Shown: in pieces, positions 5,601 through 43,378 of the stretch
How positions within the stretch are numbered: position 1 is the first letter of the stretch
Layout: the number at the start of each line of letters is the position of its first letter
Origin: Raillietiella orientalis
Taxonomy: Eukaryota
Direction of reading: 5' to 3'
DNA length: 64,000 bases
Assembly: GCA_036172245.1 (NCBI GenBank)
Contig: JAYWIR010000092.1
Span: 1-64,000 of the forward strand
The notes under the pieces: generated by a model
What the model was told of the DNA's origin: nothing
Seen by the model: the letters and a program-made list of their open reading frames with translations, nothing else
The model's database searches: none
Program-made: the position numbers and the translations under genes

Positions 5601-5918
5601 TACTTGCAGTCCGCTACCTGCGGATTGTGACCAGATGGCCCCACCTGGGGATTATACGAACGGACCTCGAGGGCATCCTGCGAAGGATGGACCCTCCTCC
5701 AAGTGGTCAGTGATCCCTCCCCAACCCTCCCAAATCTTTTTGTTTTTATGTTTATTTTTCTTTTTGTTTTTCCCCCAACCCCTTCCTCTGCCGAGGAGAG
5801 TCGCGCCGGTCTGAGTACCGGCGACCCGGCAGGTCCAGTTGAGTTGGACGTAGTAAGGCCTCGTACAACGAATAAAAGAGAAATCTTAATAAACGCCCCG
5901 GCGTGACCGGGTGGCAAC
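2619..5918 (+). mobile_element. Family B LINE, 5'-truncated within APE, with complete 3' end
   Basis: ORF2 remnant, then T-rich 3' UTR, stem-loop and AATAAA (5888) plus terminal hairpin. Confidence 0.93.
2645..5713 (+). pseudogene. ORF2 (APE C-terminal part, RT, CCHC finger) with a single in-frame TGA at 4253-4255
   Basis: ORFs 2645-4255 and 4259-5713 share a frame; IDHV, SDH, YADD, KYLG, CIRCGEREILSHLLVDC. Confidence 0.93.
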
Positions 5919-9510: not shown

Positions 9511-11704
9511 CCGGCCTTGCCGTACTCAGCGGAAGGCAACGCGTGGAGATCGTCTGCAAAGACGTAGCCCTAGCGCAGCGCCTCATCAACACCCCGCTGA
9601 ATGTGGCTGGCTGAATGATCCTACCCGTTAGCATGGACCGCTCCGTAGTGGTCCATCTAATGGGGATCACGAATCGCATGACGCGCTCTGCGGTGAACGC
9701 GGAATTAAAGAAATACGGAGATGTGCACGCGCTGTGGCCAAAGCCAACCATTTTTGACGGCTATAACAGCCTCTTTGGTGGCCAGGCAGCAGCGCGTGTC
9801 ACTGTGAACGAGGGTGCTGGGTTACCTCACAAACTGGAGGTCGGGAAGGAGCCCGTCGACCTCTGGTACGTGCGGAAACCCCGCTATTGTGGCTACTGCG
9901 ATGCAGTAGGGCATGTGCGCAGGCGGTGCCCAAATATCTAGTGCCACTAGTGCGGGGAAAAGGGACACGTCCGTCGTGTGTGCCTCAAACGCCCCACCCC
10001 GGTGCCACCTGCTGCCAAAAAGGCCTCATCGCGCGAATGGCCGGCCCCAGCAGCCTTCTCCTCCTCCTCCAACCCAGGCGGCAGCGGAAAAAACCGCGAA
10101 AGACGCGTGCGAGGAAGAAGGATGGACGCTGGTAAAGGCCAGAAAAAAAACCCAAAAAGGGATCACAAGAGAAGCCGGAGAAAAAGCCGGTCGCGAAGGC
10201 GAAAAAACCAGGTCCGCGATCTAAAACTCTCCGCGAGAGCTCGGTAGCACTGGAGCGCATCAGCGTTCCCGAGGCTGCCACCCGGGGCGAAGAGCCTCCC
10301 CTTGCCGTTTCCGCCGCGCCAGAGGTTCGCGAAGGCGAACCCTCTGTTTGCACAGAGGGTGAGACGCGCGACGCGCTCGCCGCCGGCGAGGACGCCGCCT
10401 TCGCGAAGGCGGCGGAGGAGCTCGCGGCCACGCTGGCTGAGCGTGAGAACCCCTCACACAAAACCGTGCGAAGGCCCCCGCAGGTGAGTGCGACCTGGGG
10501 GCCGGAAGTGCATGCTCCTCCTCGGAGGCACCCCCCCGGAAGACGGGACGCAAGTCCCAAAAGCCCAGGAAGCGCCTCCCCTCCACGAGCGAGGAGGAGA
10601 AGCAGGAAGTCGCCGGCAGCGTGGGAATCCCGGAGGGGAAGCTCCCACGCGCGGAAGCCGTCGAGCAGGACACCCCCATGGAGGAGGGTGAGCAGGGGGG
10701 CGAAATCTCCCCTGCCGTCGCGGACCCTGAGGAGCACACCCCTATGGAGGAGGGCCAGCAGGTAGGCGCGACCCCATCTGAGGGTGAACCGCCCGACGCG
10801 CCGTCACCGATGGAAGAGGGTGCCCAGGTGCTAGAGGCACCTGTCCCTCCTCCTCCACCTAGCGTCCCGCCCTAACAGGTGGCGGACGCCGCACAGCCGA
10901 TTTCCCAGGAATAACACCTGGGCTCGTCTGTCGCCGTCGAATCCGCGTGGCCAGTTGGAACGTCAACGGGCTACGCGACCACGGCAACAGACCAGATACG
11001 GCCGACACCCTGCGTGAGTTCGACCTGGCCCAGATGCAGGAGATCCGCGTGATCACCTCGGCAGACGTCCAGGAGATCGAGACGGTCGCGGGGGGTCGAC
11101 TGTACTGGCAATGCGGCGCCCGCAACACCTGCGGGGTCGCGTTCTTCGTCAAGCCGGCCATCGACGCTGCCGTGAAGGGCGTACGCTTTGATGGCGACGG
11201 TCGGGTCGTTCAGCTGATTCTCAGCTGGTCCGACTCGATCGAATTGATCGTCACGAACGTGTACGCCCCGAGCGGAAAAGGGGGATACAGCGACCGTACC
11301 AGGCTGCTGGAAACCCTGAAGCGCGATTGGCTGGCCGACACGAATGTGCGGAAGGCACACCTGATAGCTGGAGACTTCAATCTCCGTCTGCTGTCAGGTG
11401 AGCCCGAAGCACAAGAACGCATAGCCAACGAGTTGTGCGCTGCCATGCGCACGCGCAACTTGTTGGCAGACGCGGAGGGAATGGACCGCAGCATCCTGGA
11501 TGTCGACCTGTGCTCGCGGGTCGGCAAACGGGGGAGGGTTGCGTCAACGTTGTCGGACCATTCCCGGTTAATTTTCGAGATGCGGCCTCGCGACAAAGGA
11601 CCGCCATCCAGGGACTGGCGTCTGCCAGGGGACTGGACGCGACTCTCAGGTGCGAAAGAACACCTTCGCGAATACCTGAGAGGCGTCACGCTCCGGAATC
11701 TCCA
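9511..11704 (+). mobile_element. Family B LINE, 5' half (5'-truncated ORF1 and APE), interrupted at 11704
   Basis: CGYCDAVGHVRRRC knuckle; ORF 10947-11708 has WNVNG, NVYAP, GDFN, SDH; reading frame continues at 17238. Confidence 0.92.
10677..10830 (+). repeat. Three imperfect ~66-nt coding repeats (PMEEG-x-Q) in the family B ORF1 tail
   Basis: TPMEEGEQ, TPMEEGQQ, SPMEEGAQ in ORF 10621-10875. Confidence 0.8.
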
Positions 11705-11917
11705 TTGAAACCCGGGTGCGCCGGGACGTTTATTCTCACGAATAAACTTATACAATCTGTGACTGGACCAGTAGTCCAGCCACGCCCTGGAAAGATATAG
11801 CCTGCCGGGCTACCGGTGCGCAGACCGGCGCAGTCGACCTCGGCAGCAGAGTTGAGGGGGAACGAAACAAAAAGAAAACAAAAAATAAACAAAAATCAGG
11901 GAGGGAGCGGGAAGGGA

Positions 11918-14900: not shown

Positions 14901-15497
14901 CACGTGATCGGTGCTGCTTTCCATGGCCGTGTCCCCGGCCAACAAGTTGCGCGTGTTCATTTCTGCGCACAACTCGTTGACGCCGTCGTTCAGTGTTTCC
15001 GGCGCACCTGAAAGCAGGCGCAGGTTGAAATCACCTGCGATCAGGTGCGCTTTGCGAACTCCTGCATCGGTCAGCCAATCGCGTCTTAGGGCAAGGTAGA
15101 ATTCCCTTCTTGCCTTCGCCTTCAACGCGTTATTTCCGCTAGGAGCGTAGAGGTTGGTGACGACCAGGTCGATAGAGTCGCACGAGCTGAGAGTCAGCTG
15201 ACCGACGCGACCTGCGTCATCGAACCGAACGTCCTTTATTGCGGTGTCGATGGCTGGCCGAAGAAGGAAGGCGACACCGCTTGATTTCGCGGTGCCGCAA
15301 CGCCACAACAGCCGCCCACCCGAGATCCGTTCGATCTCCCGGGCTTGATCTGCGGAGATCACGTGGATCTCCTGCAGCAGCACCAGGTCGAAGGATGCCA
15401 GGGGGGCGGCCACGTCACGCCTCTTGCCGTCGTCGCTTAGCCCGTTCACGTTCCAACAGGCGATCAGAAGACGACGGCGAGAGGCGATTCCCGGCAT
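11918..15497 (-). pseudogene. LINE ORF2 (APE, RT, CCHC finger), ~1190 codons, with frameshifts and stops
   Basis: Pieces 14754-15497 (APE), 13582-14883 (RT), 13358-13591 (YADD), 12452-13162, 11918-12406 (CVRCGESESLPHLLVDC). Confidence 0.93.
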
Positions 15498-17155: not shown

Positions 17156-17237
17156 TTCTGCCTAATCCTCCACCCACACCACGCAAGAGCACCAACGGAA
17201 ATGGAACTCAGGAGCAACGAAAAGGCACGTCCGCTCG

Positions 17238-20200
17238 ACGCTCCGCAGTCTCCAAGACTGGGACCTCTTCAAGGCCTCGGTCCGCGAGTTCTGCGAGGAG
17301 TTTCCCCTTCACCGCCTGCCCCCCGGATTCGGGGAGGGGGCTCGGAACCATCGGGCCTATCTACAGATCCGCCGGTACGAGAGGACCCCGAATGTCCGTC
17401 GCCTCGCGGAATATCGAGCCGGGGACGAACGCCAAGCCTGGAAATCCGGGTCGGCCAACTTGCTGGACGACCAGGGCCGGGAGCGATCCGCCCCACCCGC
17501 GATCAGGCACCTCGTGCGACGTTACTACTCCTCCCTCTACGCTAGGGCACCCCCAGAGCAAAACGCTTCGCGGTTCCTGCTCCCGGATGGAGCCCCGGCA
17601 ATAGGGAAGGAGGAGAAGATCAGCCTCGACGAGCCTTTTTCTACCGGTGAAATCCTCGCCGGTATTAAAAGGCTCAAGAGGCGAAAGGCGCCAGGGGAGG
17701 ACGGCCTGCCTGCGGACTTTTTTCAATGCTTCCCGACAGAGCTGGCCCCCCTGGTGCTCCAGTTGACCGGGCTGATCCGAGACGAAGGCGACGTTCCCGC
17801 CTCGTCTCGGTCAGCCCGTGTGAGGCTCCCCCCGAATTGAGGAGACCTGAGATCCCTAGACAACTGGCGTCCGATCACAATTGTGAATACGGACGCCAGG
17901 CTGATCGCTGGACTGCGGGCTTTGCGTCTAGGACAGGTGACAGACTCCATAATTAGCCCGGAGCAGACATACGCTGTTCCCGGGCAAAGTATGGATGCCA
18001 ACCTGTTCTTCGCGAGCACATGGTTCCATGTGCAACGCTGCCTGAATGAAACTGGCGTAAAGATTGGCAACCCAACTTTGGGGCCGCCAGCTGGGCTGGG
18101 AATGGACACCCGGGCTGGGAAGGGGGCCCTAGCGATCGCGGTCGATCTCCATAAGGCGTTCGACTGCGTTGACTAGGAGCTACTGTTGGAGCTCCTGGGT
18201 CGCATGGGCTTCCCACCCTCCCTTCTCTCCAACCTGCGCTCATGCTGGCGCAACGCCATAATTAACATCTGCTTTTCCAGCCAACAGGTGTACGGCGTGC
18301 CGGTACGGCGGGGCATACGGCAGGGCGATAGCCTCAGTCCCCTGCTCTTCAGCACCTACTTTGAGTTGGTGCTGAGAGCGTACAGGGTAAGTTTGGCTGC
18401 CCTGCCCAGCTCGTGCTCCGGTACGCCCGCCGTAGCAGCATACGCCGACGACCTTCTGCTCATGTTGCCCATGTCCGCTCCGGCAGCCGCAGTCGAGGAT
18501 TTCTTCGACCTGCTAAGTCGTGGGACTGGACAGCGGGTAAACAAGGCGAAGTCGTCGGTCGTACCGGTGGGTGCGACGTGGGTCGGACGGCCTGACTGGA
18601 TCCGCTTGGGAATCCCCACGGCCAGGTACCTGAAGTACCTGGGTGTCCCGTTGGGGGACTTCTGCGTTGCAGAAGCCTGGTCAGGTCGTCTCCAGAAGGT
18701 AGAGTTGGCAATCGGCCCGTTCCTGGAAGGCAAGTTCCTTCTGCCGGAACGGGCCGCAGTTTAAAACGCCCTGGCGGCCCCCATCCTCCGCCCCTTGCTT
18801 TTTGTTTGCCCCGCCCCAGGAGTAGTTAAAAAGAGGATGAAGGACCTCCTCCGCATCGCCCTTTGGGGCAAGGGGAGGCCCCGAGTCTCTCTGCAGGACT
18901 TGTGCGCTCCGCGTCGGGACGGTGGTCTCGGCCTCCTCACGCTGGAGCGCCTGGACATACAGCTGCGATGGCGCACCCTCGCCATCGCAGCAAAGTCATG
19001 GAGCACCTCTTGTTGCGTTCCGGCCCGCATCCTCGCCAGCCGTGTGTCCAGGACGCAAGGACTCGCGTCGTACCTTCTGTGCTCTGGCAGGAAGGTCAGA
19101 AGATGCGGCCTTCTTCTTGGGCGCATGGAAGCCCTGGTGAGAGACAACGGCTGGACGGTATGCAGCCCCTTCAACTCCTCCGCCTTGCTGGAGGAATCCG
19201 TTGCGACGTGGGCCAAGCTGAACCTGCAGACTTCCCCGGACTGGAACCGCCTGCGTTTCGGCCCCAACGCCTGCTGCACACTGCGGACTACTCTGGAGTG
19301 TCCCGCCAGGAGCACGTGGGCGGAGACTACTTCCCTAGCTTCGACCCTGCCCTTCCTATGAAGGGCATTAACGAGCGCCCGCAAGCCAAAGTGGCAAGTC
19401 TCCTACCGAATAGCAGGCAAGGAAAAGAAGATGAGCGGTTGGACCATGGGAGAACTGGCAGATGCCACAACCCCGAGTGCCCTCCCTCGTGGACTTCGTC
19501 GATGGGGCGAGCTGCTCGGCATCCCGACGGATGACCTGAAGTGGCCCCCAATACTGATAGGATCCAGGCCTCTCCCCCTGAAGTGGCAAGTGTCGGCGCT
19601 GCTGCTGTTGCACTGGAATCTACCCTGCAACGCGCGCCGCTTCCACTGGACGCGATGGAGTGTAAGGCCTGAGTGTGCCAGGTGTAAGGAGCAGGAATCG
19701 CTCCCCCACCTACTAGTTGACTGTTCTGCCCTTTGACCCCTGTGGGAACGGTTCGGGACGACCTTCGGGCTCCCAACGGGCAGCGCGCCTAGAGAGGTTC
19801 TTCGGCCCCTCTTCGTGCGGGATGCCCTGCCTCACGCCGCAGCCCTCGCAGTTCTCTGCTGCATCCGGGGCATCGTGGCGGCATGGAGCGACATTCGCGA
19901 CGAAGGAGTGGATGCCAACGTGAGGGATGTCATCCCGTATGCGGTCTGCTTCATGCGGAGAGCAGCGAGATGGCCCCATCTGGGAAACATGAAGATGGAC
20001 CTAGAGGGCATCCTGAGAAGGATGGACCCTCCTCTAAGTAGAACGTGATCCCTTCCCCTCCCTCCAAACTCTTTTTTGTTTTCCTTATCTTTGTTTTTCT
20101 TTTTGTTTTGATCCCTATCCCCCTCCACTGCCGAGGAGCGTCACGCCGGGCTGCGTCCCGGCGTCCCGGCAGGTCCGGTGTTGTGTGGCCGTTAGTGGGA

Positions 20201-20262
20201 CCTTGTACCACGTTTATGTAGAGTTTTTTCAATAAACGCCCCGGGCGTACCTGGGTGACAAC
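17238..20262 (+). mobile_element. Family B LINE, 3' half (RT, zinc finger, 3' UTR); continuation of 9511-11704
   Basis: Resumes at LQDWD; YADD in ORF 18186-18764; CARCKEQESLPHLLVDC; AATAAA at 20231 plus hairpin. Confidence 0.92.
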
Positions 20263-20275
20263 CCCAACTCCCTTG

Positions 20276-23200: not shown

Positions 23201-25912
23201 GCTAGGGCACCCACAGAGCGGGACGCCTCGCGGCTCTTGCTTCCAGACGGAGGCCAGGCAATAGGGGAGGAGGAGAGAATCAGCCTCGACGAGCCATTTT
23301 CTACCGGTGAAATTCTCGCCGGTATTAAAAGGCTTAAGAGGCGTAAGGCGCCAGGGGAGGACGGCCTGCTTGCATAATTTTTTCAATGCTTTGCGATAGA
23401 GCTGGCCCCCCTGGTGCTTCAGTTGACCGGGCTGATCCGAGACGAAGGCGACGTTCCCGCCTCGTTTTGGTCAGCCCGTGTGAGGCTCCTCCAGAAGGGA
23501 GGAGACCTGAGATCCCTAGGCAACTGGCGTCCGATCACAATTGTGAATACGGACGCCAAGCTGGTCGCTGGACTGTGGGCTTTGCGTTTAGGACAGGTGG
23601 CAGACTCCATAATTAGCCCGGAGCAGACATACGCTGTTCCCGGGCGAAGTATGAATGCCAACCTGTTCTTCGCGAGCACATGGTTCCATGTGCAACGCTG
23701 CCTGAATGAAACTGACGGAAAGATTGGCAACCCCACTTTGGGGCCGCCAGCTGGGCTGGGAATGGACACCCGGGCTGGGAAGGGGGCCCTAGCGATCGCG
23801 GTCGATCTCCATAAGGCGTTCGACTGCGTTGACCAGGAGCTACTGTTGGATCTCCTGGGTCGCATGGGCTTCCCATCCTCCCTTCTCTCCTTCCTGCGCT
23901 CCTGCTGGCGCAACGCCATCGTTAACATCTGCTTTTCCAGCCAACAGGTGTACGGCGTAACGGTGCGGCGGGGCATACGGCAGGGCGACAACCTCAGTCC
24001 TCTGCTCTTCAGCACCTACTTTGAGTTGGTACTGAGAGCGTACAGGGTGACTTTGGCACCCTAGCCGAGCTCGTGCCCCGGCACGCCCGCCGTAGCAGCG
24101 TACGCCGACGATCTTCTGCTCTTGTTGCTAATGTCCACGCCGGCAAAGGCGGTCGGAGACTTCCTTGATCTGCTCAGCCTTGGGACAGGACTGCAGGTGA
24201 ACAGGGCGAAGTCTTCGGTGGTGCCAGTATGTGTGGCGTGGAAAGGGCAGCAGGAATGGGTCCGTCTGGGAATCCCCACGGCGAGGTGCCTCGAGTACCT
24301 TGATGTGCCGTTGGAAGACTACTCTTCTGGGGAAGAGTGGTCCAGCTGTCTTGAAAAAGTGTAGATGGCGATCGGCCCGTTCCTGGAAGGCAAGTTTCAC
24401 TTGCCGGAACTGGCCGCGCTTTAAAACGTTTTTGCGACCCTCATCCTCCGCCCCTCGCTTTTGGTTTTCCCTACCCCCAGAAAATGCAAGAAGAGGACCT
24501 ACAACCTGCTGTGCATAGCCCTTTAGGGCAAGGGGAGGCCCCGATTACCTCTGAAGGACTTGTGCGTTCCGCGTCGGGACGGCGGGCTTGGCCTCCTGAC
24601 GCTGGAGCTCGTGGAAATCCAGCTGCGGTGGCGAACCCTTGCCATCGCAGGGAAGATGTGGAGCTCCTCTTGGTGCTTTCCGTCCCGCCACCCCGCCAGG
24701 CGTGTGTCCCGATGCGAAGGACTCGCGTCGTTTGTTCTGTGCCCTGGGCGGAAGATTCGAAGATGCGGCATCATGCTCGGACGCAGAGCAGTTCTGGCGA
24801 AGGCGAACGGTTCGATGGTTTGTGGCCCCGTCATCTCCTTTGCCTGGCTGGAAGAGACTCCTGGCAGCTGGGCCAAGCAGAACGGGAAAAGAACACATGA
24901 ACTGCTTGCGAATCGGCCCATACGCCAACCTCACCCTGCGGAAAATACTGGGTTTACCCTGGAGTCGCAGGTGGACGTTGACAACCCCCCTTGCTAAGGC
25001 AATGCACTACCCCCTGAGGGCGCTTCATTCCTGCCAGAAGCCGAGGAGGCAAGTAATCTTCCAGATCGCAGGCAGGGAGAAGATCTTAAGCGGCTGGACC
25101 ACAGGAGAACTGGCGGACGCCACAACCCTTAGCGTCCAGCCGCAAGGCTTGACTAGATGGGGCGAGCTGCTCGCCATCCCTACGGATGTGCTGAAGTGGC
25201 CCCCGGTAATAAAGGAATTCAGGATCCTGCCCCTTAAGTGGCAAGAGTCGGCGTTGCTACTGCTGCACTGGGGATTACCCTGCAACGCACGCCGCTTCCA
25301 CTGGACAAGGGGAGCTGTGGATCCTGTGTGTGTCAGGTGCGGGGAGCGGGAATCCCTCTCCCTCCTTATTGTGGACTGTGCTGCCATCCGACCCCTCTGG
25401 GAACGGTTCGGGGCGACCCTAGGGCTCCCTACAGGCAGCACCCCCAGAGACGTTCTTCGGCACCTCTTCGTGAAGGACGCACTGCAGCCAGCCGCAGTCA
25501 TCGCAGCCTTGTGCTGTGTCCGTGGCATCGTGGCGGCATGGAGCGACGCCAATAACGAAGGAGTGGGTCCACACGCGAGAGATGTCATCCCAAATGCCGA
25601 ACGCTTCTTGCGGAGAGCTGGCAAATGGCCCCAAATGGAGAATATGCGGATGGACCTCGAGAGCTTCCTTCAACGGAAGGGCCCTCCTCACAGCGAGTAG
25701 TGATCCCTTCCCCGCCCTCCAACTTCTTTTTGTTGGTTTATTTTTTATTTTTATTTTTCCTTAACCCTCATTCCCCTTGTCTGCTGAGGAACGCTACGCC
25801 GGGCTGCGTTTCGGCGTCCCGGCAATTCATGTACGTATGGCCGTGATCTGGACCTAGTACCGCGTATGCAGAGTTTTTTTAAATCAACGCCCAGGGCGTT
25901 CCCGGGTGTAAA
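20276..25912 (+). mobile_element. Full-length, decayed family B LINE
   Basis: 5' motif GAGAGCGGACGTGG (20276-20289); ORF1 from ~20378 (MPEDTT) to 22112 with CCHC knuckles; ORF2 22109-25700 in pieces; terminal hairpin 25888-25908. Confidence 0.92.
21870..22030 (+). repeat. Three imperfect coding repeats (PME-x-GEQ) in the family B ORF1 tail
   Basis: TPMEEGEQ, APMEKGEQ, KPMEQGEQ in ORF 21420-22112. Confidence 0.8.
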
Positions 25913-26457
25913 TCTTCAAGGCTGGCCAGAAGGCCGTAAGGCGTCCGGCCTCCCCTGAGGAATCCCCCACTTCCGACGCCGAGGTGGAGGCCGGAAGCGC
26001 AGCGTCCGTTTCCACGGCAGCCCGCAAGAAGGCTGGACGTAAGTCCACAAAGCCAAGGAAGCTCGTCTCCCCCGTCGAAGGGGAAGAGATGGCTTCCGCA
26101 AGCGAAGGTGCCATGAGCGTGGGAAACTCTCGGGACCCGTCGCCCGAGAGACTCCCACGAACGGACACGGAGGGGATGGAGGGGTTGGAGGCCGAACATG
26201 TGCCTCAGGTGCCTGAGAGGCCGAAACCCCCATGGACATCCCGCCCGCCTCGCAAGAGGAGGGCTCCCCCACACCTTAATCTTCCCAGCAGTAATGCCGG
26301 GAATCTCCTCCCGCCGTCGTCTGCGCATCGCCGTTTGGAACGTGAACGGCATGACAGACGTCGGAAAAAGACGAGACATGGTCGCCCTACAGGAGTTCTA
26401 CCACCTTGCGCTGCTGCAGGAGATCCACGTGATCTCTGCACAACAAGCGCAAGAGAT
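25913..26457 (+). mobile_element. Family A fragment: ORF1 C-terminus and ORF2 N-terminus
   Basis: Close match to 7220-7760 (minus); MPGISSRRRLRIAVWNVNG and QEIH. Confidence 0.9.
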
Positions 26458-29400
26458 TTCTCACCCGGTCACGCCGGGGCGTTTATTCCATATTACATAA
26501 CGAAAAAAACCAATTATACAAAATCAACCAGTTGGAAACCAAACTGCCAACCGACGACTGAACATGAATGAAGAGAATATTGCTGGCACGCAGGTCAAAG
26601 TAACAGTTCTGCGAACGGTATGGTGGGGCGGGGAACACAAAGAAACCAGAATAAAATAAAAACAATCAATAAGCAGGACGGGATAAGGGTCTTTGGGATC
26701 GCTCTGGAAGACACGGGAATAAAAGCATGGGCACCGGAAATTTTACCAAGCGAACGGGGACGGGGTATGGGTGGGCAAGAGGTAACAGGGGTGACCGGAT
26801 TACGCCGTTCTGAAAGATCTGTAAACCGGCGATGTATGCCGGTGATGTCCTCATTCACCTTGTCACGAAGATGAGACCACCTTGAAGCCTTCTCCATGAA
26901 TTGAGCTGCTAGCAGCTGAGCCTCCCTTCGCTGCAAAGACAACTCCAGGGCGTAGCGGGCCTTCACGATGGAGCTAACGCAACACATGGTTGCGACAATC
27001 GCGCCAACCGAATGTCCATTTCTGCTGAAGAAGCGCCGCAGCACATCAATGGCAGTGCCTCCTTGTCGCATCATGGCCGGAGTGAGCACTCGCCACAGTT
27101 CCCGGAGGTCATTGCTGTCCAGCAAAAGGTGCGGAAAAGAATCGAACTCTCCGCACCTTTAACAGTTTGGCAAAGCAGCTCCCCCGGAAACGATGCTTCG
27201 CTGCCTATTACAGTGTAATGCACAATGTAAAAAGAGCAGCACATCTTGTTTCCACTTCAGGGAAAACACGGAGCTGTCCAAACAAACGGGAATAACCACT
27301 ATCTCTCCGGGGGGCACACTTGAATGTTCGCTCCACCCAAGCAGGCCCTTCGCTCGATTGCGAGGAGTGGCGGCTTGCACCAGCTCCTTTGTCGTCCAGC
27401 TGCCGTGGAGCTTACTGACTCCCGCTATTTTGCTGGAGAACCTCCATTCCGCCGGTAGGCAACCGTCGTTGCTTGCCCCGAGGGCAGACAGCGCTGCGGC
27501 GAGTGGTGTGGCGGCCAGACGATCCGACAACTTCTAGTCCTGCGTGACTTCGTCTATTTGATGACTGAGGAGAAGTCGCAGGCGTCGAAGATCTTCCGGG
27601 CGCGTTCCTTCGGAAGCTGCCCACGATGAAAAAGATTCCTGCCGCCATGCATTAATTTTGATGGGGCGGCAGGAGATCCAGCTTTGGGCTTCCAGCAGTG
27701 AGGAGAGCTGCCTCAGCGGGAAGACAAACCCTATTCTGGTGTGCCGAAAGTGGGGTAGCAACGAAAGCAGTCCCTCGCTTCGCGTGCAGCGCCTCAGTAT
27801 AAGCTGTGAGGGTAAGCAACACGGCGTACACCACAGCTTGTCACAGAGCCGCAGCATGCGAAACTGCACCTGCAGCTCGATGGGTTTTAAGTCGAGGATT
27901 CCCAAGCCTGCATCCTGACGCGGCGCCACCAAGTCTTTAAGTCTAACACGGGATCTTGCAGCGCCCCCCAACGCTTTGCGTAGAAGGCACTGCGCCCAGA
28001 CTTTGACATCCTGGGGAGATGGACAAACAAAAAACCGGGGGCGGTGGAGGAGGGCAACGAAGGTGTTCCAGATGCAGGCCCGTTCCGGCAAGACGAACTC
28101 GCCTCCTGAAAACGGGACAAGTGCACGCTCTGCCTTCCGAAGGCAGTCCGACCACGCTTGTGAGATGCAGAAGTCGACCAAGGGCACGCCAAGCTACCTG
28201 AGGTACCTGCCCTTGGGGATGCCCAGGCCGATCTAGTCGGACTTCCCCTCCCACGTCGCATTCACCGGAACAACCATACACTTACTCCTGTTAACGTTCA
28301 CGCCCGGACCGCGACGAATCAACTAAAGAAGTCTTCAAGCGATGTCGCCGCGGTGGACATGGGCAACCGGAGAAGCAGGTCGTCGGCATAGGCTGCCACG
28401 GCCGGCGTACCTGGACAGGAGCTCGGCAGGTTGGCTAGCGTCAGCCTGTAAGCCTTCAGCCTCAATTCAAAATAGATGCTGAAGAGCAGCGGGCTTAAGC
28501 TATCACCCTGCCTAATTCCTCGTCGTACCGGCACGCCGTACACGCGACAGCCACTGAAAACAATGGATGTAATCGCGTGGCGCCTGCAAAAGCGTAAGTA
28601 CGACAACAGGGATGCCGGAAGACCTAGAGGTTCCAAAAGCTCAAGAAGAAGCTTTTAATTCAAGCAATCGGAAGCTTTGTGCAAATGGACTGCAACCGCC
28701 AAGGCTTCCGGTGTCTCCCTTTGCGTCCCGCGCCTCCGTCGGTGAGAGATCAGAAGCGTCTCTTCCGAACGACGATCCGCCGTCACAGGATGCTGCAATT
28801 GCAGCCATGTGCGGATGAACAAGAGATTCGCGTCCATCGACCGCCCAGGAACAGCGTACGTGTACTCCAAACTTACCAAGGATTCCGCGATCCTACCCAT
28901 CCGCGCTACCCAAAGTTTCGAGAACAACTTAACGTCCGAATTCACTAATGTGATCGGACGCCAGTTGTTCAGTTGGCGCAAATCTCCGCCTTTGGGCGGT
29001 AGACGCACCTTCGCTGAGCGAAACGAAACAGGGACATCGCCCGAGTCTCGCATTAGCGGAGAGAGTTGGAGCAACAAAGGGATGAGCTCCGCCGCAAAAC
29101 ACTGAAACAATTTCGTGGGGAGCTCATCTTCGTCTGGCGCTTTTGGTCTCTTGAGCCCCGAGATGGCCGAGGAAATTTTCTCTGCCGTGAAGGGCTCATC
29201 AAGACGCGCGCATTCCTTCTCCTGTACGACAGGTGCATCAATCGGCAGAAGCAGCCGGGAGAGGATGCCTTCCGTCGGTGCCTCTGCATACAGAGAATTG
29301 AAATAGCGCCTGGCTATCCGTCGCACGTCGGCTGGAGCCGAGCATTCCCTATCCTGGTCGTCGAGCAGAACTGTCGCCCCTGACTGCCAGACCTGGCGCT

Positions 29401-30925: not shown

Positions 30926-31703
30926 AGGTGAAGCAAAGTGTTTTGCTTTTCTTGCACTGGGGATTGCGCTACAACGAGAGGCGCCACCGAGTTTCCGGTA
31001 GGGTGGCTTCTCCCTACTGTGCCCGGTGCGGAGTGACGGATTCGTTCCTGCACCTTGTTACGGACTGTGGAGCCCTCCTAGAACTGTGGAGGAGGCTAGC
31101 AGCAGCTCCTTCGTCACCAGAAGACACCGCTCGAGAAGTGCTGCGACCGTTCTTCCAGACACAAGGACTTTCGATGGCTGCGACGATTTCCACTGTTGGT
31201 TCCATCCGCGCCATCATCACGGTCCCAGACGTGCTGGAGAATACTGGACAGCAATGTTGTGTCACCAGGAGGGCAGCTGACTTCATCAGGTCGGCAGCTG
31301 GGTGGCGACACTTATATGAAGACACAACGGAGGAGCTAACCGGTATCCTTCTCCGGATCAGCAACGGCTTCGAACGACGAAATCGGTGATCCGCCCTCAT
31401 TTAGTTTTTGATTGGTTTTTTTGTTCTCGCGTCCTTTTTACTATACGCTCCGCAGTCCTTTTGGAGCGAGAACTTTTGAGATTATCGGTGAGTGCAAAGC
31501 AACACCAGAGTCCCCTGGCCCACTCCTACCATTTACAATTTTTTTTTTTTTTTTGAACTACACTCAGTCGTCCATGATCTTCCGTTTTCCTGGTGTGCGT
31601 GGCAGGGGTGAATCTCTGCTTCATGTTTTCAGAGTGGATTGCTGGAAACAATTTTTTCCAGCACGTTTATGTCAATAAAGGTTTCGGCGTGACCAGGTGA
31701 AAA
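30926..31703 (+). mobile_element. 5'-truncated family C-like LINE (zinc finger and 3' UTR)
   Basis: KQSVLLFLHWGL and CARCGVTDSFLHLVTDC; AATAAA at 31674 plus degenerate hairpin. Confidence 0.85.
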
Positions 31704-32170
31704 ATTTCAACCTTCGCCTGAAACCAGATCTGCAGAATCCCGAGCGTGACCTGGTCAACGGAGTGTGCATGCCTTTGCACACCTGTAATTTGTTGGCCAG
31801 CGCACCGGGGATGGAAGATAGCATTGACCACGCGTTTCTTCACGAGCACCTGTGCCCTCGCGTGGGCAGGCGCGGCAAGTTACCGTGCGAGCTGTCCGAC
31901 CATCGCCCGCTAGTCCTCGAGATCCATCCGCGCGACAGGGGCCTTGCCTCGTCAGCGTGGCGTCTCCCAGAGGACTGGCTGATGCTCCCGGACGCGGCGG
32001 AACATCTCCGCACGTTCATACGGAGCTTCAGGCTGCGGACACTCCAGGATTGGGACCGCTTCAAGCGGTCGGTCCAGGAGTTCTGCGACCAGTTCCCCCT
32101 GCACCGTATACCTACGGGTTTTGGGACCGTGGTCCGAAACGAACGAGCCTATCTGCAGGCCCGTCATTAC
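31704..32170 (+). pseudogene. Family A ORF2 fragment (from the GDFN motif to the linker)
   Basis: ORF 31697-32308: FNLRL, IDHA, SDH, LQDWDRFK; closely similar to 20-480. Confidence 0.88.
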
Positions 32171-32800
32171 TTCGGCTTTTTCCACAACGCGTGGACGGTT
32201 CCAAATTTAATTCATTCCTTTCGGACAGCCTCTTTGGCCATCCGGAAGGGGATTCCGAGGAGGTGGATCACGATAGATCTATCCTCCGTGATGGGGAGGA
32301 GCCGGTGATTCCCTAAAGGAACAGGTGTACGGAGCAGACGCTGGGCAAGACTTGCTTCTTTGCAAATCACCTCAACGTACTGTCCATCACTCCTGATGGT
32401 CATCGCCAAGAGCTCCTCCTGGGGTACTATGAGGGAGTGCATCGCTTTCGAGAAAGCGCGTGCACTCTCAAAGGAGTGAAGGTTGCCTACCTTGTAGAGT
32501 AGAGAGGGATTGTACCCCTCCTCCAGGTAGGCTTTTAACTCTGCCGCAGCCGCTTGCGTTGGCGCCGCAGCCACGAAACTCCTGCTTCTCCCTAACGAGG
32601 GAGGCGCTTCTGTGGGGGCGGTTGCCCCCACATCCATTGATTCAGGGAGCGACATAGACGTCGCCCCCTCCTTAACATTGGTGGTGGTCCCAGGCATTGC
32701 TGCCTAGCCACCAGCGAATTCACTGGCACACAAAGAAAAAAAATAAAAAAAATAAAACCATAAACGCTCAAGAGCGAAACAAAAACCGGTCCGCTCTCGC
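32171..32800 (-). mobile_element. Family A-like 5' end with ORF1 N-terminus
   Basis: ORF 32212-32697 (MPGTTT...EEGYNPSLLYKVG) aligns to the intact ORF1; 5' motif GAGAGCGGACCGGTTTTT. Confidence 0.87.
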
Positions 32801-33053
32801 TCTTGGACTGGGACGATCTGAAAAGATCGGCCCGCGAGTTCTGCAGACGGTTCCCCTGGCGTTTGCTTCCCCGTGGCTTCGAGGAAGGCGTGGCCAACAT
32901 CAGAGAGTTTCTGCAGGCCCTGCAATTCTCTCGATGACCGGACGTCCGGTACCTTGCGGAATACAAGGCCAAGGCCGAGCGCCAGGTCTGGCAGTCAGGA
33001 GCGGCTTGTCTGCTCGTTCAAGCTGGCCAGGAGTGCTCGGCTGCAGCCGACGT
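32801..33053 (+). pseudogene. Family C ORF2 linker fragment
   Basis: DWDDLKRS...EYKAKAERQVWQSGA...ECSAAADV. Confidence 0.8.
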
Positions 33054-33310
33054 TTGTCATTTGGATATGCCGGATCATTTATTATTCTAATTTGTTACAA
33101 AAATTAGATAATAAAGTCTTTCAAAAGTTGATTATGGGAAACACTTGGTTTTCCCACCTTGGTTGACGACCAGGGCCAGGAGTACTCGGGCGCGGCCGAG
33201 GTTTGTCACCCGGATATGCCGGGGCATTTATTATTTTAATTTTTTACAAAAATTAGATAATAAAGTCTTAAAAAAATGTTTTCTGTGGGGGAACACTGGG
33301 TTCTCCCACG
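33015..33310. repeat. Two diverged ~150-bp tandem units, each an ORF2 target segment plus an antisense family D 3' terminus
   Basis: GGCCAGGAGT...GA(C/G)GTTTGTCA...GGATATGCCGG...TTACAAAAATTAGATAATAAAGTCTT occurs twice. Confidence 0.85.
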
Positions 33311-34915: not shown

Positions 34916-34919
34916 TCGA

Positions 34920-35229
34920 GTCAGTGAAAAGCAACGACGACTTCTTCCTATCTGGGAGCTATGACGAGGGACCTCGAGGGCATACTAGAGAGGATGGTCC
35001 CCTCCTCCAGCGGGCTATGATCCCTTCCCGGCCCTCCAAATATTTCCTTTCTGTTATTTCATTTATTTTTCTTTTTGTTTTACCTTCTATCCCCTCCGCT
35101 GCCGAGGAGGACAAGCTGGCTTCAGAACCGGCTTCCTGGCAGGTTTCATGAAATATTTGCCGTAGCGGGACCTAGTACCGCAAATGTACAGTGTTTTTTA
35201 ATAAACGCCCCGACGTGATCGGATGAAAA
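34920..35229 (+). mobile_element. Very short 5'-truncated family B-like LINE (last codons and 3' UTR)
   Basis: DLEGILERM, TGATCCC, CTGCCGAGGAG stem, AATAAA at 35200 plus hairpin. Confidence 0.85.
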
Positions 35230-37810
35230 CGTCCGTCTGCTCTCCGACGATTAAAGCCGCCCGAGGGAGCGCGCCCTGCCCATCGAGATGTGCGCGTTGG
35301 TGCACGCCGCCAACTTGATTGTCAGCGAACCTGGAATGAAAGGATCGCTCGATCACGTTTTCCTCGATGAAAACCTGCATGCGCTTGTGGGTAGGAGAGT
35401 AAGATTGCTGACTGGGCTTTCTGTCAACAATCTTACTACAGGTTGGGGTTTGAGCTCCTTCCGCCAGACAAGGAGCCTTCCTTGCAAAACTGGAGGATGC
35501 AGGCGGATTGGCGTAGCCAACCGGAGGCTGCGGAGCATCTATGTGGACACATTCGAGGCTTTGCCATTCAAGAACTTGCGGACTGGGACGATCTCAAAAG
35601 ATCTGTCCGCGAGTTCTGGTGCCAATTCCCCTTAAACCGGCTTCCACGCGGTTTCGAAGAGGGCGTGGCAAACAGTAGAGACTTCCAGCAGGCCCGCACG
35701 TTTTCGAGTCGCGCGGATGTAGGGCGTCCCGCGGAGTACAAGGCGAGGGCCGAGCGCCAGGTCTGGCAGTCCGGAGCAGTATTTCTGTTGAACGACAAGG
35801 GCCAGGAATGTTGGGTCCCAGCCGAAGTACTCCGCATTGTGAGACGCTACTTCTCCTCGCTCTACGCCTAATCCTCGACGGAGGATATTCTTTCTGAGAT
35901 ACTCCTGTCGCAGGAGGCTTCTGTTGTCGGCGGTGTTGAACGCGAACGTCTCCACGAGACCTTCACGGTTGATAATTTTCGTTGTCCATCGCTGAGCTGA
36001 AGAGACGAAAGGCGCCAGGCGAGGATGAGCTATCTGCATCAGTGCTTTGCATTGGAGCTCATCATCTTTATGCTGAGACTCGCAATGCTGATGAGGGAAT
36101 CCGGGAATGTACCAAATTCCTTCCGCTCAGGGAAGGTGCGGCTTCTCCCGGAAAGGAGGACACTTGCGCCATCTTAACAACTAGCGTCCGATCACTTTGG
36201 TGAACTCGGACGTCGACTTGTTTTCCAAGCTGTGAGTCGCGCGGTTAGGAAGTATCGCGGAATCTGTGGTGAGCCCGGAACAAACCTACGCGGTTCCCGG
36301 ACGATCCATGGAGGCGAACATCCTTTTCTCGAGTTCCTGGATGTAGCTGCAGGAAGTCGTGGCTCAGCAAAGCCTGGCTGCGGCGGAAGTCGCTACCACA
36401 AGCAAGAAGAACAGGCGCCGACGGCAGGAGAGTACGCCAGGTGCCTTGGCGGTCGCGGTTGATCTCCACATGGCATTCGACTGCGTAAACCAGAGGCTCC
36501 TCTTGGAGCTCTTGAAACTCCTTGGATTCCCGGCGCATCACCTTCTTTACTTGCGCGCATGCTGGCGCCACGCGCTGACCCCCGTTACTTTCAGCGGCTG
36601 TCGCGTGTACGGTATTCCCATGCGTTGGGGCACTTGGCAAGGTGATGGCGGCTCCACGTCGAGATGCTGGTTTGTGTATCCGGACAATGAAGCCAATCGG
36701 ACTGCACGTGCAGTTCCGCCTTCTGCCACTGTGTGCCAAGCTATGGACATCCTCTCTGTGTGTGCCTGCGTGCATTCTACTGCGGAGATGTGCCTGAAGT
36801 GGAGGACTGCTCTCTCTATTGCTGGGCTCGCAATACAGGAAGCGAGGTTTCGTTTATCCTTTCTGGCAATTGGCCGCAATTCTGGAAGTTTACACGTGGA
36901 TCTCCTGCCTCTCAATAATCTTCAACGCTTGTCGGCAGGTGTCTGTTGAATCCAAGGCGACGTTTCATGGAATGCTCCCTGAAGATCTTTGCTCTTGCGC
37001 CATCTTCTTCCGCGACCTTTGGAAGACGTACTGCAGGGCGAAGTGAAGTTTTCTACCCTGGCTGTCCCACCTCCCGCCGCAGCGCTGTCTGCCCTCAAGC
37101 TAAGAAACGACAGTTGCCAACCGGCGAAGCTGGAAGTTTCCTGCAGGATAGGGGGAAAAAGAAAACTCCTTGATGCCTGGAAAACGAGTAAGTTGATGGA
37201 CGCCGCTACTACTCGTTCTACTACAAATGGACTTCTACGGTTGGCAGAAGAACTTGGTGTCACCCATGAAGAACTTGTAGTCCCTCCACAGTGTGTTGAC
37301 AGTTCGCTGCTTCCCCTTGCTTTGAAACAAGCCGTGCTACTCTTTGTTTACTGAGGATTTCAGTGCAACGAGCGTTGGCATCGTGACTGAGGGGGACTTG
37401 CGTCTGCGAACTGCGTTCGGTGCGGATCAACGGAGTCGATTCCGCACCTACTTCTGGACTGCGGTGTCCTACAAGGACCATGGCGGAGGCTGGCAACAGC
37501 ACTGTCCCATCCCCTGGGCATCGCAAGAGACTTGCTGCGATGTTACTTCACGCCCAGAGGGCTGGCTACATGCGCAAGGAATGCAACTATCACTCCATCT
37601 GCGAGAGGACGACTGTGCAGGAGGAAAGGATTAAAATCTTCTTTTGGGAAGGTTTCGCGGGTTTCTTTCGCCCACTCAATTTCACACGGATCTGCGAGAA
37701 CCATAACGGTTTATTTGTAATTATCTTTCTCACCTGCATTCACCCGTCTTCCTTCGTGTCGCAGTTATCTTTGCCAACCTGAGATGGCACTGCGTACGCG
37801 GATATAAGAG
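35230..37810 (+). mobile_element. Decayed family C-like ORF2 with an internal deletion removing the YADD region (~36645)
   Basis: LDHVFLD, DWDDLK, AVAVDLHMAFD, QGD, then a jump to APRRDAG-like sequence; LKQAVLLF near 37330. Confidence 0.8.
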
Positions 37811-39342: not shown

Positions 39343-39509
39343 GTGGCCGGCGCTGACTTGATTTGCACCTGGTTGCTCCGATACGTCAATTTGTGAAAAC
39401 AAACCACAATCTTGAAGAGAATTCATCCCCTGAAAAAACAAGAAACGCCCATACAAAAAGTTCAACCTCGAAGGAACACCTGCTCGCAGGCCGGCTTCAA
39501 AAATAAAGG

Positions 39510-39899: not shown

Positions 39900-40439
39900 A
39901 GTTTTCACCCGGGTTTCTCCGGGCGTTTATTATAAAAACAAACTTTAACAAAGACGTGCAGTGGCTGCACCAGTGCTTCAGCCACGTAAGAAGAAACAGG
40001 GAGCCTGCTAGGTCACCGGTTCGCAGACCAATAGGATCCATTACAGCAGCAGCGGTAAGGGGGAAAAACAAAAAAATAAACAAAAAGAAAACAAAGAGTT
40101 GGTGTGAGCGGAAAGGGATGACGCTGCTGGGGCCGCTGCATCCTTCGCAGGATGCCGGCAAGCTCTTTCCGTATTTTAGGAACCAGGTGGGACCATCGCG
40201 ACGTTCTCCTTAAAAATTCGGCAGCATGCTGAATGGCACCCTTATCGCGGGGTCATCCCGCAGCTTTGCTCCAAGCAGCGACGATCCCACGTAGGCAGCA
40301 CAGCGCTGCTAACGCGGCCGCAGGCCGAAGGACGTAGGCAACGAAGAGGGCTTTCAATGCGTCCCTGGGGTTGCCGCAGGAGATTACGATAGTCTCGGCA
40401 AAGCGCAACCAAAGGCACCAAAGGACAACACAATCCACT
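39900..40439 (-). mobile_element. 5'-truncated family A LINE 3' end
   Basis: DCVVL...GNPRDALKALF...AALCCLRGIVAAWSKA matches 11918-12240; AATAAACGCCCGG...CCGGGTGAAAA terminus. Confidence 0.83.
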
Positions 40440-42522
40440 CATAAGGCGTTCCACTGCGTGGACTAGGTACTTTTCCTAAGCCTCCAGGATTGTATGAGCT
40501 TCCCACCCTCCTTACTGACCTTACTGCGAACTTGCTGACGCATTGCTATAATTTACGTTAGTTTTAGCTGTCAAATGGTGTACGGCATATCGGTCCGTCG
40601 GGGCATACGGCAGGGCGACGTCCTGATTGCCCTGCTCTTTAGCACCTACTTCCAGTTGATGCTGAGAGCTTACAGGGCGACTTAGGATGCCTTGCCGAGC
40701 TCGTGCACCGGTACGCCCACCGTATCCGAGTGCGCCGATAATCTTTAGCTCTTGTTGCCTATGTACTCGTCGTCAGCCGCAGTCGTGGACTTCTTCCATT
40801 TGCTGAGCCGTGGGACTGGACTGTGGGTGAACAGTTCAATGTTGTCGGTGATGACAGTTGGTGCGACGTTAGATGGACGGCTTGACTGGATCCGATTGGG
40901 AATTCCTACGGCTAGGTATCTGGAGTAACTTAGCGTCCCGTTGGAGAACTTCTGCCTCGTGGAAGCCTGGTCAGGTGGTCTCCGAAAAGTAGAGTTGGCG
41001 ATCGGTCCCTTCTTTGAATACAAGTATCTCCTTCCGGAACGGGCCGCGGTGTGAAACGCTTTCGCAACTCTCAACCTACCCCCCTGCTTTTGTTTGCCTC
41101 GTACCTCCCCAGTTGGAAAAACGAACAAAGGACCTCCTAAGAATTGCCTTTTGGGAAAGAGGTGAACCCTGACTTCCTTTGAAAAACTTGTGTGCTCCGC
41201 GTCGTGATGGCGGTCTCGGCCTCTTGACGCTGGAGAGAATGGAGATCCAGCTGCGAAGGCGCAGAATGAGTATCGCAGGGAAGTTATGGAGCACCCATTG
41301 GTATGTTGCGGCCTTCGTCTTGCCAGCCGTGTATCCGGGACTCCAGGATTCGCGTCAAATTTTTTGTGACATTGCCGCAATTTTCAAAGTTGCGGCCTTC
41401 TCCTAGGACGCATGGCCACCCTGCCTAAGGAGAAAGGCTGGATGGTGGGCAGCCCCGCAAACTCCTGCGCATAGCAGATGGAGATTTCTGGCACGTGGAG
41501 GAAGATAAATGAGAAGAGAAGCAAGATGTGGAAACGCCTGTAACACCGAACCTACGCCCGTTGCACTCTGCGGAACATACTCTATTGTCCTGTGAGGAGC
41601 ACATGGGCAGGGACAACCCCCCTAACTACGGCGATGCCTTCCTGAGGAGGGCGTTTTCCAGCAGCAGCATGCCTATGTGGTAAGTCTACTGCCGTATCGC
41701 AGGCAGAGAAAAGCTGATGAGCGGTTGGACCATGGTTGAGCTGGTGGCTGACACGACCAGAATTGTCCTCTTGCGTGGACTTTTGAGATGGGGGGAGTTG
41801 TTCGGCATCCCGTCGGATGCCCTCATGTGTTCGTCGGTTTTTATTGGTTCGAAGATTCTTCCCCTGGAGTGGCAGGAGTCGGCGCTTCTGTTGTTGCATT
41901 GGGGTCTACCCTGCAACCCGCAGCACCACCAGTGTGCACGGGGTAGAGTGAATTTTGCCTGCATCAGGTGTGGGGAATGGGAATCCCTCTCCCCACCTCC
42001 TCGTTGATTGTGTTGCTTTCCGACCTCTGTGGGTGAGCCTTGGTACCTTCCTACGGATCCAGGTAGGCAGCCATACCAGAGACATTTTGTGTCTCTTCGT
42101 GTAGGATGCCCTGCGTCCAGCCGCAGCCCTGACAGCACTCTGCTGTGTCCGAGGGATTGTTCCGTGCTGGATCGATGTTACAAGAACGAACCACTAGAAG
42201 GATGCCGTTGAACTTGCAGGCCACTACCCTCGGCTTGCGACCAGATGGCTCCAACTGCGAACTATAAGGGCGCACCTCGAAAGCATCTTGGAAAGGATGG
42301 ACCCTCCCTCCAGTGGACAGTGATTTCTTTCTCGCCCTCCCAGTTCTTTTTGTTTTTTCTTTTTCTTTTTTCCCCTATACCCGTCCGCTGTCCAGGAGAG
42401 TCACGCCGGTCTGCGTACCGGCGACCCGGCAGCTGCTGTAGTGTTGGTTGGCCGTAGTGGGCCCCTGTATCACAAATTATAGTGAATTTATAGTAAACAC
42501 ATAGGCGTGAACTGGTGGCAAC
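40440..42522 (+). mobile_element. Heavily decayed family B LINE from HKAF to the 3' end
   Basis: GIRQGD, LCAPRRDGGLGLL, WQESALLLLHWGLPCN, CIRCGE; 3' UTR stem at 42388-42432; ends GGTGGCAAC. Confidence 0.85.
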
Positions 42523-42860
42523 AAGTAAATTCGCTTCCGAATTCACTTCAATCATGGGACGCCAGTTGTCAACGTTGCGCAAGCCTCCTCCCTTGGGGAA
42601 GATACTTACTCTAACTGACCAGAATGAGTTGGGGACATTCCCACGTTCACGGACATACACAATTTGTACTTACAGAATTTGTGCACCAAGGGCACGAGCT
42701 CTGTCGCAAAGCATTGATGAAGTTCCTCTGGACGACCGTCTTCCCCTAATGACTTGTGTTTTTTTAATTTTAAGTAAACGGAGATTATCTCTGTCATCGT
42801 ATATTTGTGATGGAAGGTGTCAATTTTCTAGTCCCGGAGCGCGGGAGCACATTCATTCAG
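42523..42860 (-). pseudogene. Decayed RT N-terminal fragment
   Basis: KSLGEDGRPEELHQCF and PKGGGLRNVDNWRPMIEVNSEANLL. Confidence 0.78.
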
Positions 42861-43378
42861 CAGACGCTGGACAAAAAAGCGCTCAGATGTTTTCCTCGGG
42901 GTTGTCCGTCTTCTCTTCTTGCAGGACGCCTTGTTGCCAGCCGCAGCTCTGGCAGCACTCTGCAGGTATTGTGGTCATGCCATTCAGGAGGCATGAAGTG
43001 TATCCGAGCATAAAGATTCCAATGTAGCGGACGTAATAACGTATACCGTTCGCATCCTGCAGTGAGCTACCGACTGGCCCCAGCTGGGTGGATTAAAGAG
43101 GGACCTCGAGGGCGAGCTGCAAAGCATGGACCCTTCTTTTAGTGATTAGTAATCTATTTCTCGCCCTCCAACTTCTTTTTTGTTCTGCTGTCGTTTCATG
43201 TTTATTTTTATTTTTTTTCATCATTCTCTTCCACTGCTGGGGAGTGTCACGCTGGTCGGCGTTCCGTCCTCCGGACATATGTTGAGAAATGCTTGCCGTT
43301 CGTGGGGCCTTAGACCACGTTTCTTTAATGACTTTAAGCCGAGATTCAACAAACGTATGGGCGTACCTGTGTGGCAAC
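42861..43378 (+). mobile_element. Very decayed family B-like 3' end
   Basis: QDALLPAAALAAL, RDLEGELQSMDP, T-rich UTR, degenerate terminus ending GTGGCAAC. Confidence 0.68.

Follow-up and report, generated by a model that had tools for sequence, protein, structure and literature searches.

The LINE nest and its terminal cassette

The window, a 64,000-nucleotide stretch of DNA from Raillietiella orientalis (contig JAYWIR010000092.1), contains a GC-rich nest of LINE retrotransposons that extends from base 1 to about base 43,400 and has 53-63% G+C. The nest copies are old and broken, and are 65-91% identical pairwise, none exceeding about 91%. Past this point the window has 42-49% G+C and lacks long reading frames. 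The drop in G+C at about 43,400 is abrupt, and the CpG observed/expected ratio is 0.90-0.96 on both sides of it. A 107-residue reverse-transcriptase fragment in the low-GC part (54258-54581, minus strand) is apparently a separate old LINE remnant.

Reading frames in the nest encode the Pfam domains RVT_1, Exo_endo_phos, and zf-RVT, and a zinc knuckle in ORF1 was matched only below the Pfam cut-off. The best match of a 544-residue nest frame among solved structures is human L1 ORF2p (E = 4.3e-39), with R2 proteins at E = 2.9e-14 or worse, and long database relatives of about 30% identity share the layout of an apurinic endonuclease (APE), a reverse transcriptase (RT), and zf-RVT. A search of the ESM Atlas returned generic APE/RT clusters only and was uninformative on clade. 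The elements are classed as L1-like in the broad sense, including Tx1, because of these Pfam domains, the structural match to L1 ORF2p, and the layout of the relatives; APE, RT, and a C-terminal Cys-rich domain occur in ORF2, and an ORF1 lies upstream. Judged by its predicted proteins, the nest is thus one of diverged, L1-like LINE retrotransposons with an AP-endonuclease and a reverse transcriptase.

At each 3′ end lies a cassette of about 31 nt. It comprises AAUAAA, two bases, a GC hairpin (CGCCC[C]GG, a loop of 4-6 nt, and CCGGGUG), N-N-A-A, and at most 1-3 more bases, directly followed by host DNA (Table 1). The copy at 5888-5918 reads AATAAACGCCCCGGCGTGACCGGGTGGCAAC. The hexamer is an exact AATAAA in 11 of the 16 ends catalogued, and the variants are one or two letters off. 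These 16 ends are not independent, as they represent about 9-10 lineages, six of the ends coming from family A and two or three from family D.

Table 1. Terminal cassettes and associated features, in window coordinates.
Feature	Position	Strand	Details
Family-A 3′ cassette	5888..5918	+	AATAAA, CGCCCCGG-CGTGA-CCGGGTG, GCAAC; host from 5919-5920; 46.2 bits, E 1.8e-11
Cassette of full-length element B (11705-17237, -)	11705..11734	-	loop CGCAC, tail TTTCAA, host TGGAGA
Left target-site duplication copy of element B, 17 bp	11688..11704	+	ACGCTCCGGAATCTCCA; 15/17 bases match 17238-17254
Right target-site duplication copy of element B	17238..17254	+	15/17 identity to 11688-11704
Family-A cassette	20231..20262	+	one additional stem G, loop CGTA, tail GACAAC
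Family-A cassette	25882..25913	+	hexamer AATCAA; CCC[A]GGG-CGTT-CCCGGG; tail TGTAAA(T); host from 25913-25914; folding z -2.9
Cassette of a distant family	26457..26487	-	26-mer as at 5888; ORF2 C-half 35% identical; host from 26456-26457
Cassette of another distant family	31674..31704	+	GGTTTCGG-CGTGA-CCAGGTG, tail GAAAA(A); one pair U:A for C:G
Family-D cassette	33202..33232	-	loop CATAT, tail GACAAA
Decayed second cassette, 149 nt downstream of 33202..33232	33053..33083	-	GGG changed to AAA; does not fold; host from 33052-33053
Cassette of 5′-truncated family-A fragment (~34960-35231)	35200..35230	+	top pair A:U for G:C
Bulge-less cassette	39901..39931	-	CGCCCGG-AGAAAC-CCGGGTG, 7 continuous pairs; tail AAAA(C); z -4.3
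Decayed family-A cassette (AGTAAA)	42492..42522	+	host site same as for 5888
Decayed family-A cassette (AACAAA)	43348..43378	+	covariance-model match
Added cassette, low-GC part	61224..61255	-	AATAAACG, ACCTGG-CGAAAA-CCAGGT, GAGAAT; perfect stem with other letters; E 2.1e-3, z -5.1
Added weaker cassette	59565..59595	-	AATATA; CGCCTCGG-CACAT-TCAGGTG; E 1.3e-3; no LINE body recognised upstream
Added weak cassette (AATTGA)	39361..39391	-	E 0.07; probably a ~160-nt fragment
Added weak cassette	45117..45147	+	E 0.09; 353 nt past a decayed, family-D-related ORF2 C-terminal piece
Long GC-rich hairpin further upstream in family-A 3′ UTR	5788..5832	+	two helices, 16 pairs

A covariance model was built on the 12 ends listed by the sequence-only reading, and was run unfiltered over the whole window. 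Those 12 places, which fit by construction, are its top 12 matches (E = 1.8e-11 to 9e-7). It also found four extra matches, entered in Table 1 as added cassettes, and five further matches with E values of 2.5-8 were treated as noise. The model was checked independently by tblastn with four ORF2 C-terminal frames as queries, counting only HSPs that reach to within 25 residues of the query end. All 11 ORF2 C-terminal ends found in this way have a model match on the same strand 172-353 nt downstream; two uncounted HSPs that end farther from the query end (37022-37666, plus strand, and 53961-53716, minus strand) have no model match within 1 kb downstream. The two added cassettes in the low-GC part at 59565-59595 and 61224-61255 have no LINE coding sequence upstream, and the latter is preceded on its strand by sequence resembling a LINE 3′ UTR (TGA, a pyrimidine tract, and CTGCTGCCG).

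The motif had originally been proposed for about 12 termini, and it is present at all 12 places. The consensus first given for it fared less well: in its literal form, with CCCGG right after YG, it matches a single place on the minus strand, 39908-39931, and nothing in 100 shuffles, most copies having CCCCGG, and the stem is redrawn here as CGCCC[C]GG/CCGGGUG, with seven pairs and a one-base bulge or five pairs without it. The loops CGTGA, CGCAC, CATAT, and AGAAAC are as described, as is the compensatory change at 35200, but the cassette that had been placed at 43358 begins at 43348. A looser regular expression recovered 6 of the 12 listed places together with 5 unrelated ones.

No Rfam family, including the histone 3′ element, matched any terminus; two sub-threshold miRNA-like matches lie elsewhere. 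A 20-base motif scan of public collections gave two matches in metagenome contigs and two in genome contigs, with no relatives among them. These four were read as chance, because the metagenome loci are GC-rich without flanking features, the genome records are titled as bacterial MAGs, and the number is about that expected for the pattern.

Conservation and pairing of the cassette

The cassette is far more conserved than the remaining 3′ UTR across diverged lineages. Among the 12 listed ends (66 pairs), mean pairwise identity is 0.71 in the cassette, compared with 0.47-0.51 in seven neighbouring 31-nt windows and 0.45 in random 31-mers from the nest; across all 16 ends, the cassette has 0.68 and the neighbouring windows 0.46-0.48. 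T25, A29, and A30 are present in 16/16 ends and G26 in 15/16, while the loop and positions 27-28 vary. As noticed in the sequence-only reading, the 26-mer at 5888 is repeated exactly at 26487-26462 on the minus strand, although the ORF2 C-terminal halves of the two elements are only 35% identical in protein. By these comparisons the cassette appears to be under selective constraint, in families whose 3′ UTRs cannot otherwise be aligned.

RNAalifold and the covariance model concur on a hairpin of seven pairs with a one-base bulge and a loop of 4-6 nt. Two alignments were scored against 500 shuffles each: a MAFFT alignment of the 12 ends, and an alignment of all 16 ends that was fitted to the covariance model and is therefore biased toward structure. 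In the fitted alignment 87.5% of 112 cells are paired, a level matched by 1/500 shuffles; in the MAFFT alignment 89.3% are paired (8/500). Sliding the 3′ partner lowers these values to 21-45% and 26-46%, respectively. Cells altered on both sides number 7 in the fitted alignment (3/500) and 4 in the MAFFT alignment (19/500), and the covariation scores are 0.331 (1/500) and 0.338 (16/500). Pairs with a change on both sides make up 3/7 in each alignment, which was equalled by 170/500 and 51/500 shuffles. A caveat applies to all of these counts, as related sequences without structure can outdo nearly all shuffles.

Individual copies retain pairing with other letters. The pair adjacent to the bulge is U:A in the cassettes at 31674, 59595, and 39391, and the cassette at 61255 pairs perfectly as ACCUGG/CCAGGU without the bulge. 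Two pairing registers, bulged and unbulged, are possible owing to the C and G runs. Folding z-scores of the 16 hairpins are strong in three cases (-2.9, -4.3, and -5.1), lie between -0.15 and -1.75 in ten, and are positive in three. CpG decay was rejected as the cause of the paired changes, given a CpG observed/expected ratio of 0.90-0.96. The stem is moderately supported, by a small set of ends that are related to one another.

An alternative hairpin, ACGC/GCGU, overlaps the main stem on its 5′ arm. It is kept less well, with 74.6% of cells paired and 78/500 shuffles scoring as high, and it was not adopted. Within this small hairpin, cassette positions 7 and 16 (e.g., 5894 and 5903) covary, being C:G in ten ends, U:A in two, and A:U in one, which may reflect chance or a second conformation.

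The 3′ UTR of family A has further features upstream of the cassette. Right after the ORF2 stop, 5711-5790 and homologous stretches contain a conserved TGATCCCTTCCCC...CCCTCC motif and then a long T-rich tract. The two helices at 5788-5832 have 87-90% of cells paired across six copies, and two of their pairs are altered on both sides.

Element ends, target sites, and nesting

Eight termini can be fixed to about 1 nt by uninterrupted host copies within the window, and in each of them the distance from the first A of the hexamer to the element end is 30-32 nt. The element end is thus 24-26 nt past the hexamer at these mapped junctions. The stem is followed by T, then G (replaced by T in one copy), two variable letters, A-A, and at most 1-3 further letters. 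Besides that of element B (Table 1), examples of tails and the host sequences that follow them are TGAGAA(A) before TCTCTTGCGC, TGAAAA(A) before TTTCAAC, TGACAA(A) before CGTCGGCTG, TGTAAA(T) before CTTCAAGG, and TGGCAAC before (C)AGCAAC.

An A tail was sought at all 16 termini, and none longer than five A residues was found; the window has 13 A/T runs of 8 or more, none of which is at a terminus. The sequence-only reading had the elements ending in at most two to five A residues. The upper limit of five holds for all 16 tails, but the last letters in family A are CAAC, not A. The exact junctions between element and host rule out former A tails that have since been deleted. Tail letters are constant within a family (GGCAAC in three copies, GACAAA in two), and they are therefore templated rather than leftovers of random starts within an A tail. 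The primer ends at the mapped target sites were taken as the complement of the first host letters. They read ...TCTCCA, ...AAGAGA, ...TTGAAA, and ...CCGACG and are not rich in T, and therefore the start point cannot have been set by pairing with poly(A). These elements thus show neither the poly(A) tail on copies nor the T-rich primer at the nick that mark relaxed, poly(A)-dependent L1 retrotransposition.

Element B appears to be full length (5.5 kb) and interrupts a plus-strand element (9512-11704 and 17238-20263) within its ORF2. Its 17-bp target-site duplication, with two mismatches, was found by eye; a search for duplicated 12-16-mers with at most one mismatch found none at any of the 16 termini.

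The family-A copies ending at the 5888 and 42492 cassettes lie antisense at the same ORF2 position in host LINEs of different families (5919-5965 and 42523-42569). The two flanks match each other at 74%, and each matches other host copies more closely. Repeated independent insertion at one target, as in the Tx1 group, is therefore represented here by one site with two insertions in this window, and the paired antisense insertions point to site-specific insertion into the coding sequence of other LINEs. At 25913/25914 and 31704/31705, termini adjoin a host LINE in the same orientation, and uninterrupted host copies span both sites; insertions are therefore not only antisense.

At 33053-33232, two tandem cassettes lie 149 nt apart, each before a similar host-like NTCGGCYGC...CCGAG, an arrangement that stems either from insertion at one site more than once or from a duplication in place. 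A sequencing run (X1, apparently DNA; Logan contigs, 0.06 of words) was compared with 22600-35300 at 80% likeness and gave 503 pieces, 6 of them at least 99% alike, 45 at 95-99%, 133 at 90-95%, and 319 below 90%. In this run, at least two contigs skip exactly 149 nt (33015 to 33165). Among the matches listed, one contig passes directly from the hexamer's first base at 26487 to 27361, leaving out 873 nt, and may be an internally deleted relative that retains the cassette.

Proposed template recognition, a possible role in RNA 3′-end formation, and known systems

The sequence-only reading proposed that the RT recognises the hairpin and starts beside it, a proposal that the analysis supports in part. 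The precise ends at a constant distance, the lack of tails, the primers that are not T-rich, and the conserved cassette are consistent with recognition of the hairpin by the RT and initiation adjacent to it. In favour of this proposal stand the ends fixed at a constant 30-32 nt, the absence of an A tail, the non-T-rich primers, and conservation across families; against it, covariation is moderate, and AATAAA may signal 3′-end processing. On balance, the cassette probably acts as a "stringent-type" 3′ tag that is read by the element's own reverse transcriptase, with a start at a fixed distance past the stem. The reverse transcriptase or its RNP would bind the hairpin and the invariant flanks (UG and AA), and cDNA synthesis would begin 6-7 nt beyond the C:G pair that closes the core stem, so that the nicked target DNA need not pair with an A tail. 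The conserved AATAAA, 24-26 nt ahead of the element end, would probably still direct transcript cleavage close to that point, and the cassette may therefore serve both RNA 3′-end formation and template recognition.

This overlap of functions raises the alternative that the cassette is mainly a module for RNA 3′-end processing, in which AAUAAA and a structured spacer set cleavage and polyadenylation at the last base, and conservation is owed to host machinery rather than to the RT. Cleavage usually falls within 10-30 nt after a polyadenylation hexamer, and the ends mapped here fall inside this range. The exact or nearly exact hexamers also suit such a module, as does the C that precedes the final A residues in 8/16 ends, and one tail across very different families would suit a common host factor. 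Vertebrate L1 elements likewise have AATAAA just before the tail, in the part of the survey used here (PMC5381506). Processing alone, however, explains neither why an A tail was not copied nor why tail letters are fixed within families, and polyadenylation is not known to require the invariant letters (UG and AA) or the retained stem. The missing A tail would need a separate cause, such as an RT whose start is always at the first A residues. We consider processing as the main function rather unlikely, although it can coexist with reading of the cassette as a stringent tag. A further alternative would dispense with polyadenylation: the stem-loop and a tail of 4-6 nt would define the RNA end by a cleavage-only route like that of histone mRNA, and the RT would copy from the true RNA end. 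The geometry of a stem-loop, a short fixed tail, and the end would suit this route, as would the absence of an A tail from every copy, but the conserved AATAAA favours the ordinary polyadenylation route, the Rfam histone 3′ element matched no terminus, and the differing flanks leave no place for a conserved downstream element. This makes a cleavage-only route very improbable.

The cassette might instead be a passenger with no priming function of its own, inherited from a common ancestor or spread by template switching or 3′ recombination. The nesting of the families would give their RNAs occasion to meet, and the 26/26 identity at 35% protein identity could reflect recent exchange rather than long constraint. 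Upstream similarity is nevertheless at chance level (0.47-0.50, against 0.71 in the cassette), the distance from cassette to end is the same in 8/8 mapped junctions, and variants retain pairing with other letters. Repeated capture would, moreover, itself indicate a selective advantage. A passenger role is accordingly improbable, somewhat less so than the cleavage-only route.

Recognition of the cassette as a stringent-type tag must also account for its distribution. A tail common to families at 35% protein identity, even with the same loop in some cases, does not fit strict cognate recognition well. It suggests that the protein-RNA interface is deeply conserved, that a host factor is involved, or that families exchange their 3′ ends. 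A bolder form of the proposal, which we hold only tentatively and think unlikely as a whole, is that a guild of L1/Tx1-like elements (down to about 35% identity in the C-terminal half of ORF2, and inserting in each other's genes) uses a single 31-nt module. The hairpin fused to the hexamer would serve as a ruler, and the RT or a shared host factor would start at precisely 6-7 nt beyond the C:G pair closing the core stem, on any primer, ignoring poly(A). If true, this would place a precise start like that of R2 within the L1 lineage, and the shared tag would let families mobilise each other. No SINE or other non-autonomous partner with the same tail was recognised in the window.

R2 elements are site-specific, lack an A tail, and have a structured 3′ UTR and a precise start on the RNA without primer pairing. 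They belong to a distant clade, with a restriction-like endonuclease, a single ORF, and a far larger structure in the 3′ UTR. The precise end without an A tail is thus common to R2 and to the elements described here, which differ in being APE-type and in their much closer match to L1 among solved structures (4.3e-39, vs. 2.9e-14 for R2).

Within the L1 clade itself, plant and vertebrate surveys, in the parts drawn on here, bear out the premise of the sequence-only reading that copies usually end in poly(A), and exceptions are already on record (PMC3472496; PMC5381506). Among flowering-plant L1 families 224/233 end in (A)n and 9/233 have no 3′ repeat, while 5/15 green-algal families have no 3′ repeat, according to the sections of that survey used here (PMC3472496). 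The same portions describe two L1 lineages with a conserved 3′ stem-loop, LINE1-1_ZM and L1-1_CR (PMC3472496), for which stringent recognition was proposed on the same kind of evidence as presented here (PMC3472496; PMC3747384). As those sources describe them, maize LINE1-1_ZM ("monocot 1a") and Chlamydomonas L1-1_CR resemble the present case in being L1-type, with a 3′ end of about 45-50 nt that is far more conserved than the rest, a compensatory hairpin, and invariant letters by the stem and in the loop (PMC3472496; PMC3747384). Compared by description, L1-1_CR is listed with (A)n, and both lineages have SINE partners that share their tails, whereas neither an A tail, a repeat, nor a partner was seen here. 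The hexamer also directly adjoins the hairpin in our elements, which by description sets them apart from LINE1-1_ZM and L1-1_CR. A word search of the main texts of open-access literature, supplements excluded, found no description of this particular cassette.

Short 3′ stem-loops are also present in stringent-type LINEs of the L2 clade, in zebrafish ZfL2-1 and ZfL2-2 and in eel UnaL2, where, in the portions of the reports used here, they are bound by ORF2p and needed for retrotransposition (PMC4176376; PMC3747384). Recognition of the 3′ stem-loop by ORF2p was shown for ZfL2, and it is bipartite, the stem being general and the loop specific (PMC4176376, in the part used). Each ZfL2 protein takes its cognate tail only, by the same account (PMC4176376), whereas very different families share one tail here, in two cases with an identical loop. 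UnaL2 ends in TGTAA repeats, in contrast to the repeat-less ends in the window.

The Tx1 clade (Tx1 in Tx1D, Keno, Kibi, Koshi, and crocodilian Tx1) likewise comprises L1-related APE-type LINEs at fixed targets (PMC4494074, as far as the part used goes), a habit known here from two insertions at one ORF2 site. Unlike the ends described here, the SINEU elements, whose mobilisation is ascribed to crocodilian Tx1, are all poly(A)-tailed in that account (PMC4494074). Vertebrate L1 elements share with ours the two ORFs, a pyrimidine- or T-rich tract in the 3′ UTR, and AATAAA near the end, and the T-rich tract of family A (5711-5790) resembles the pyrimidine tracts in the 3′ UTRs of frog and lizard L1 (PMC5381506, in the part consulted). 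All vertebrate L1 examined in that survey have AATAAA and poly-A at the end; they differ from the elements here in that the poly-A tail is always present, and the passages of the survey used here describe no conserved terminal hairpin (PMC5381506).

A hairpin-ended guild of L1/Tx1-like elements without an A tail is unusual, yet precedented. The compact cassette of 31 nt with clear invariant letters offers a handy system for the choice of start point by L1-type RTs, and the covariance model provides a practical marker that locates element ends, including those of short fragments, in a tangled nest of repeats. In textbooks, L1-type elements exemplify a "relaxed" choice of template by way of poly(A), which permits the copying of SINEs and mRNAs. 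To the extent that Ohshima's proposal is set out in the part of the source used here, a tail-less, hairpin-ended L1/Tx1-like guild adds to the case for stringent recognition, perhaps ancestral, in the L1 lineage (PMC3472496).
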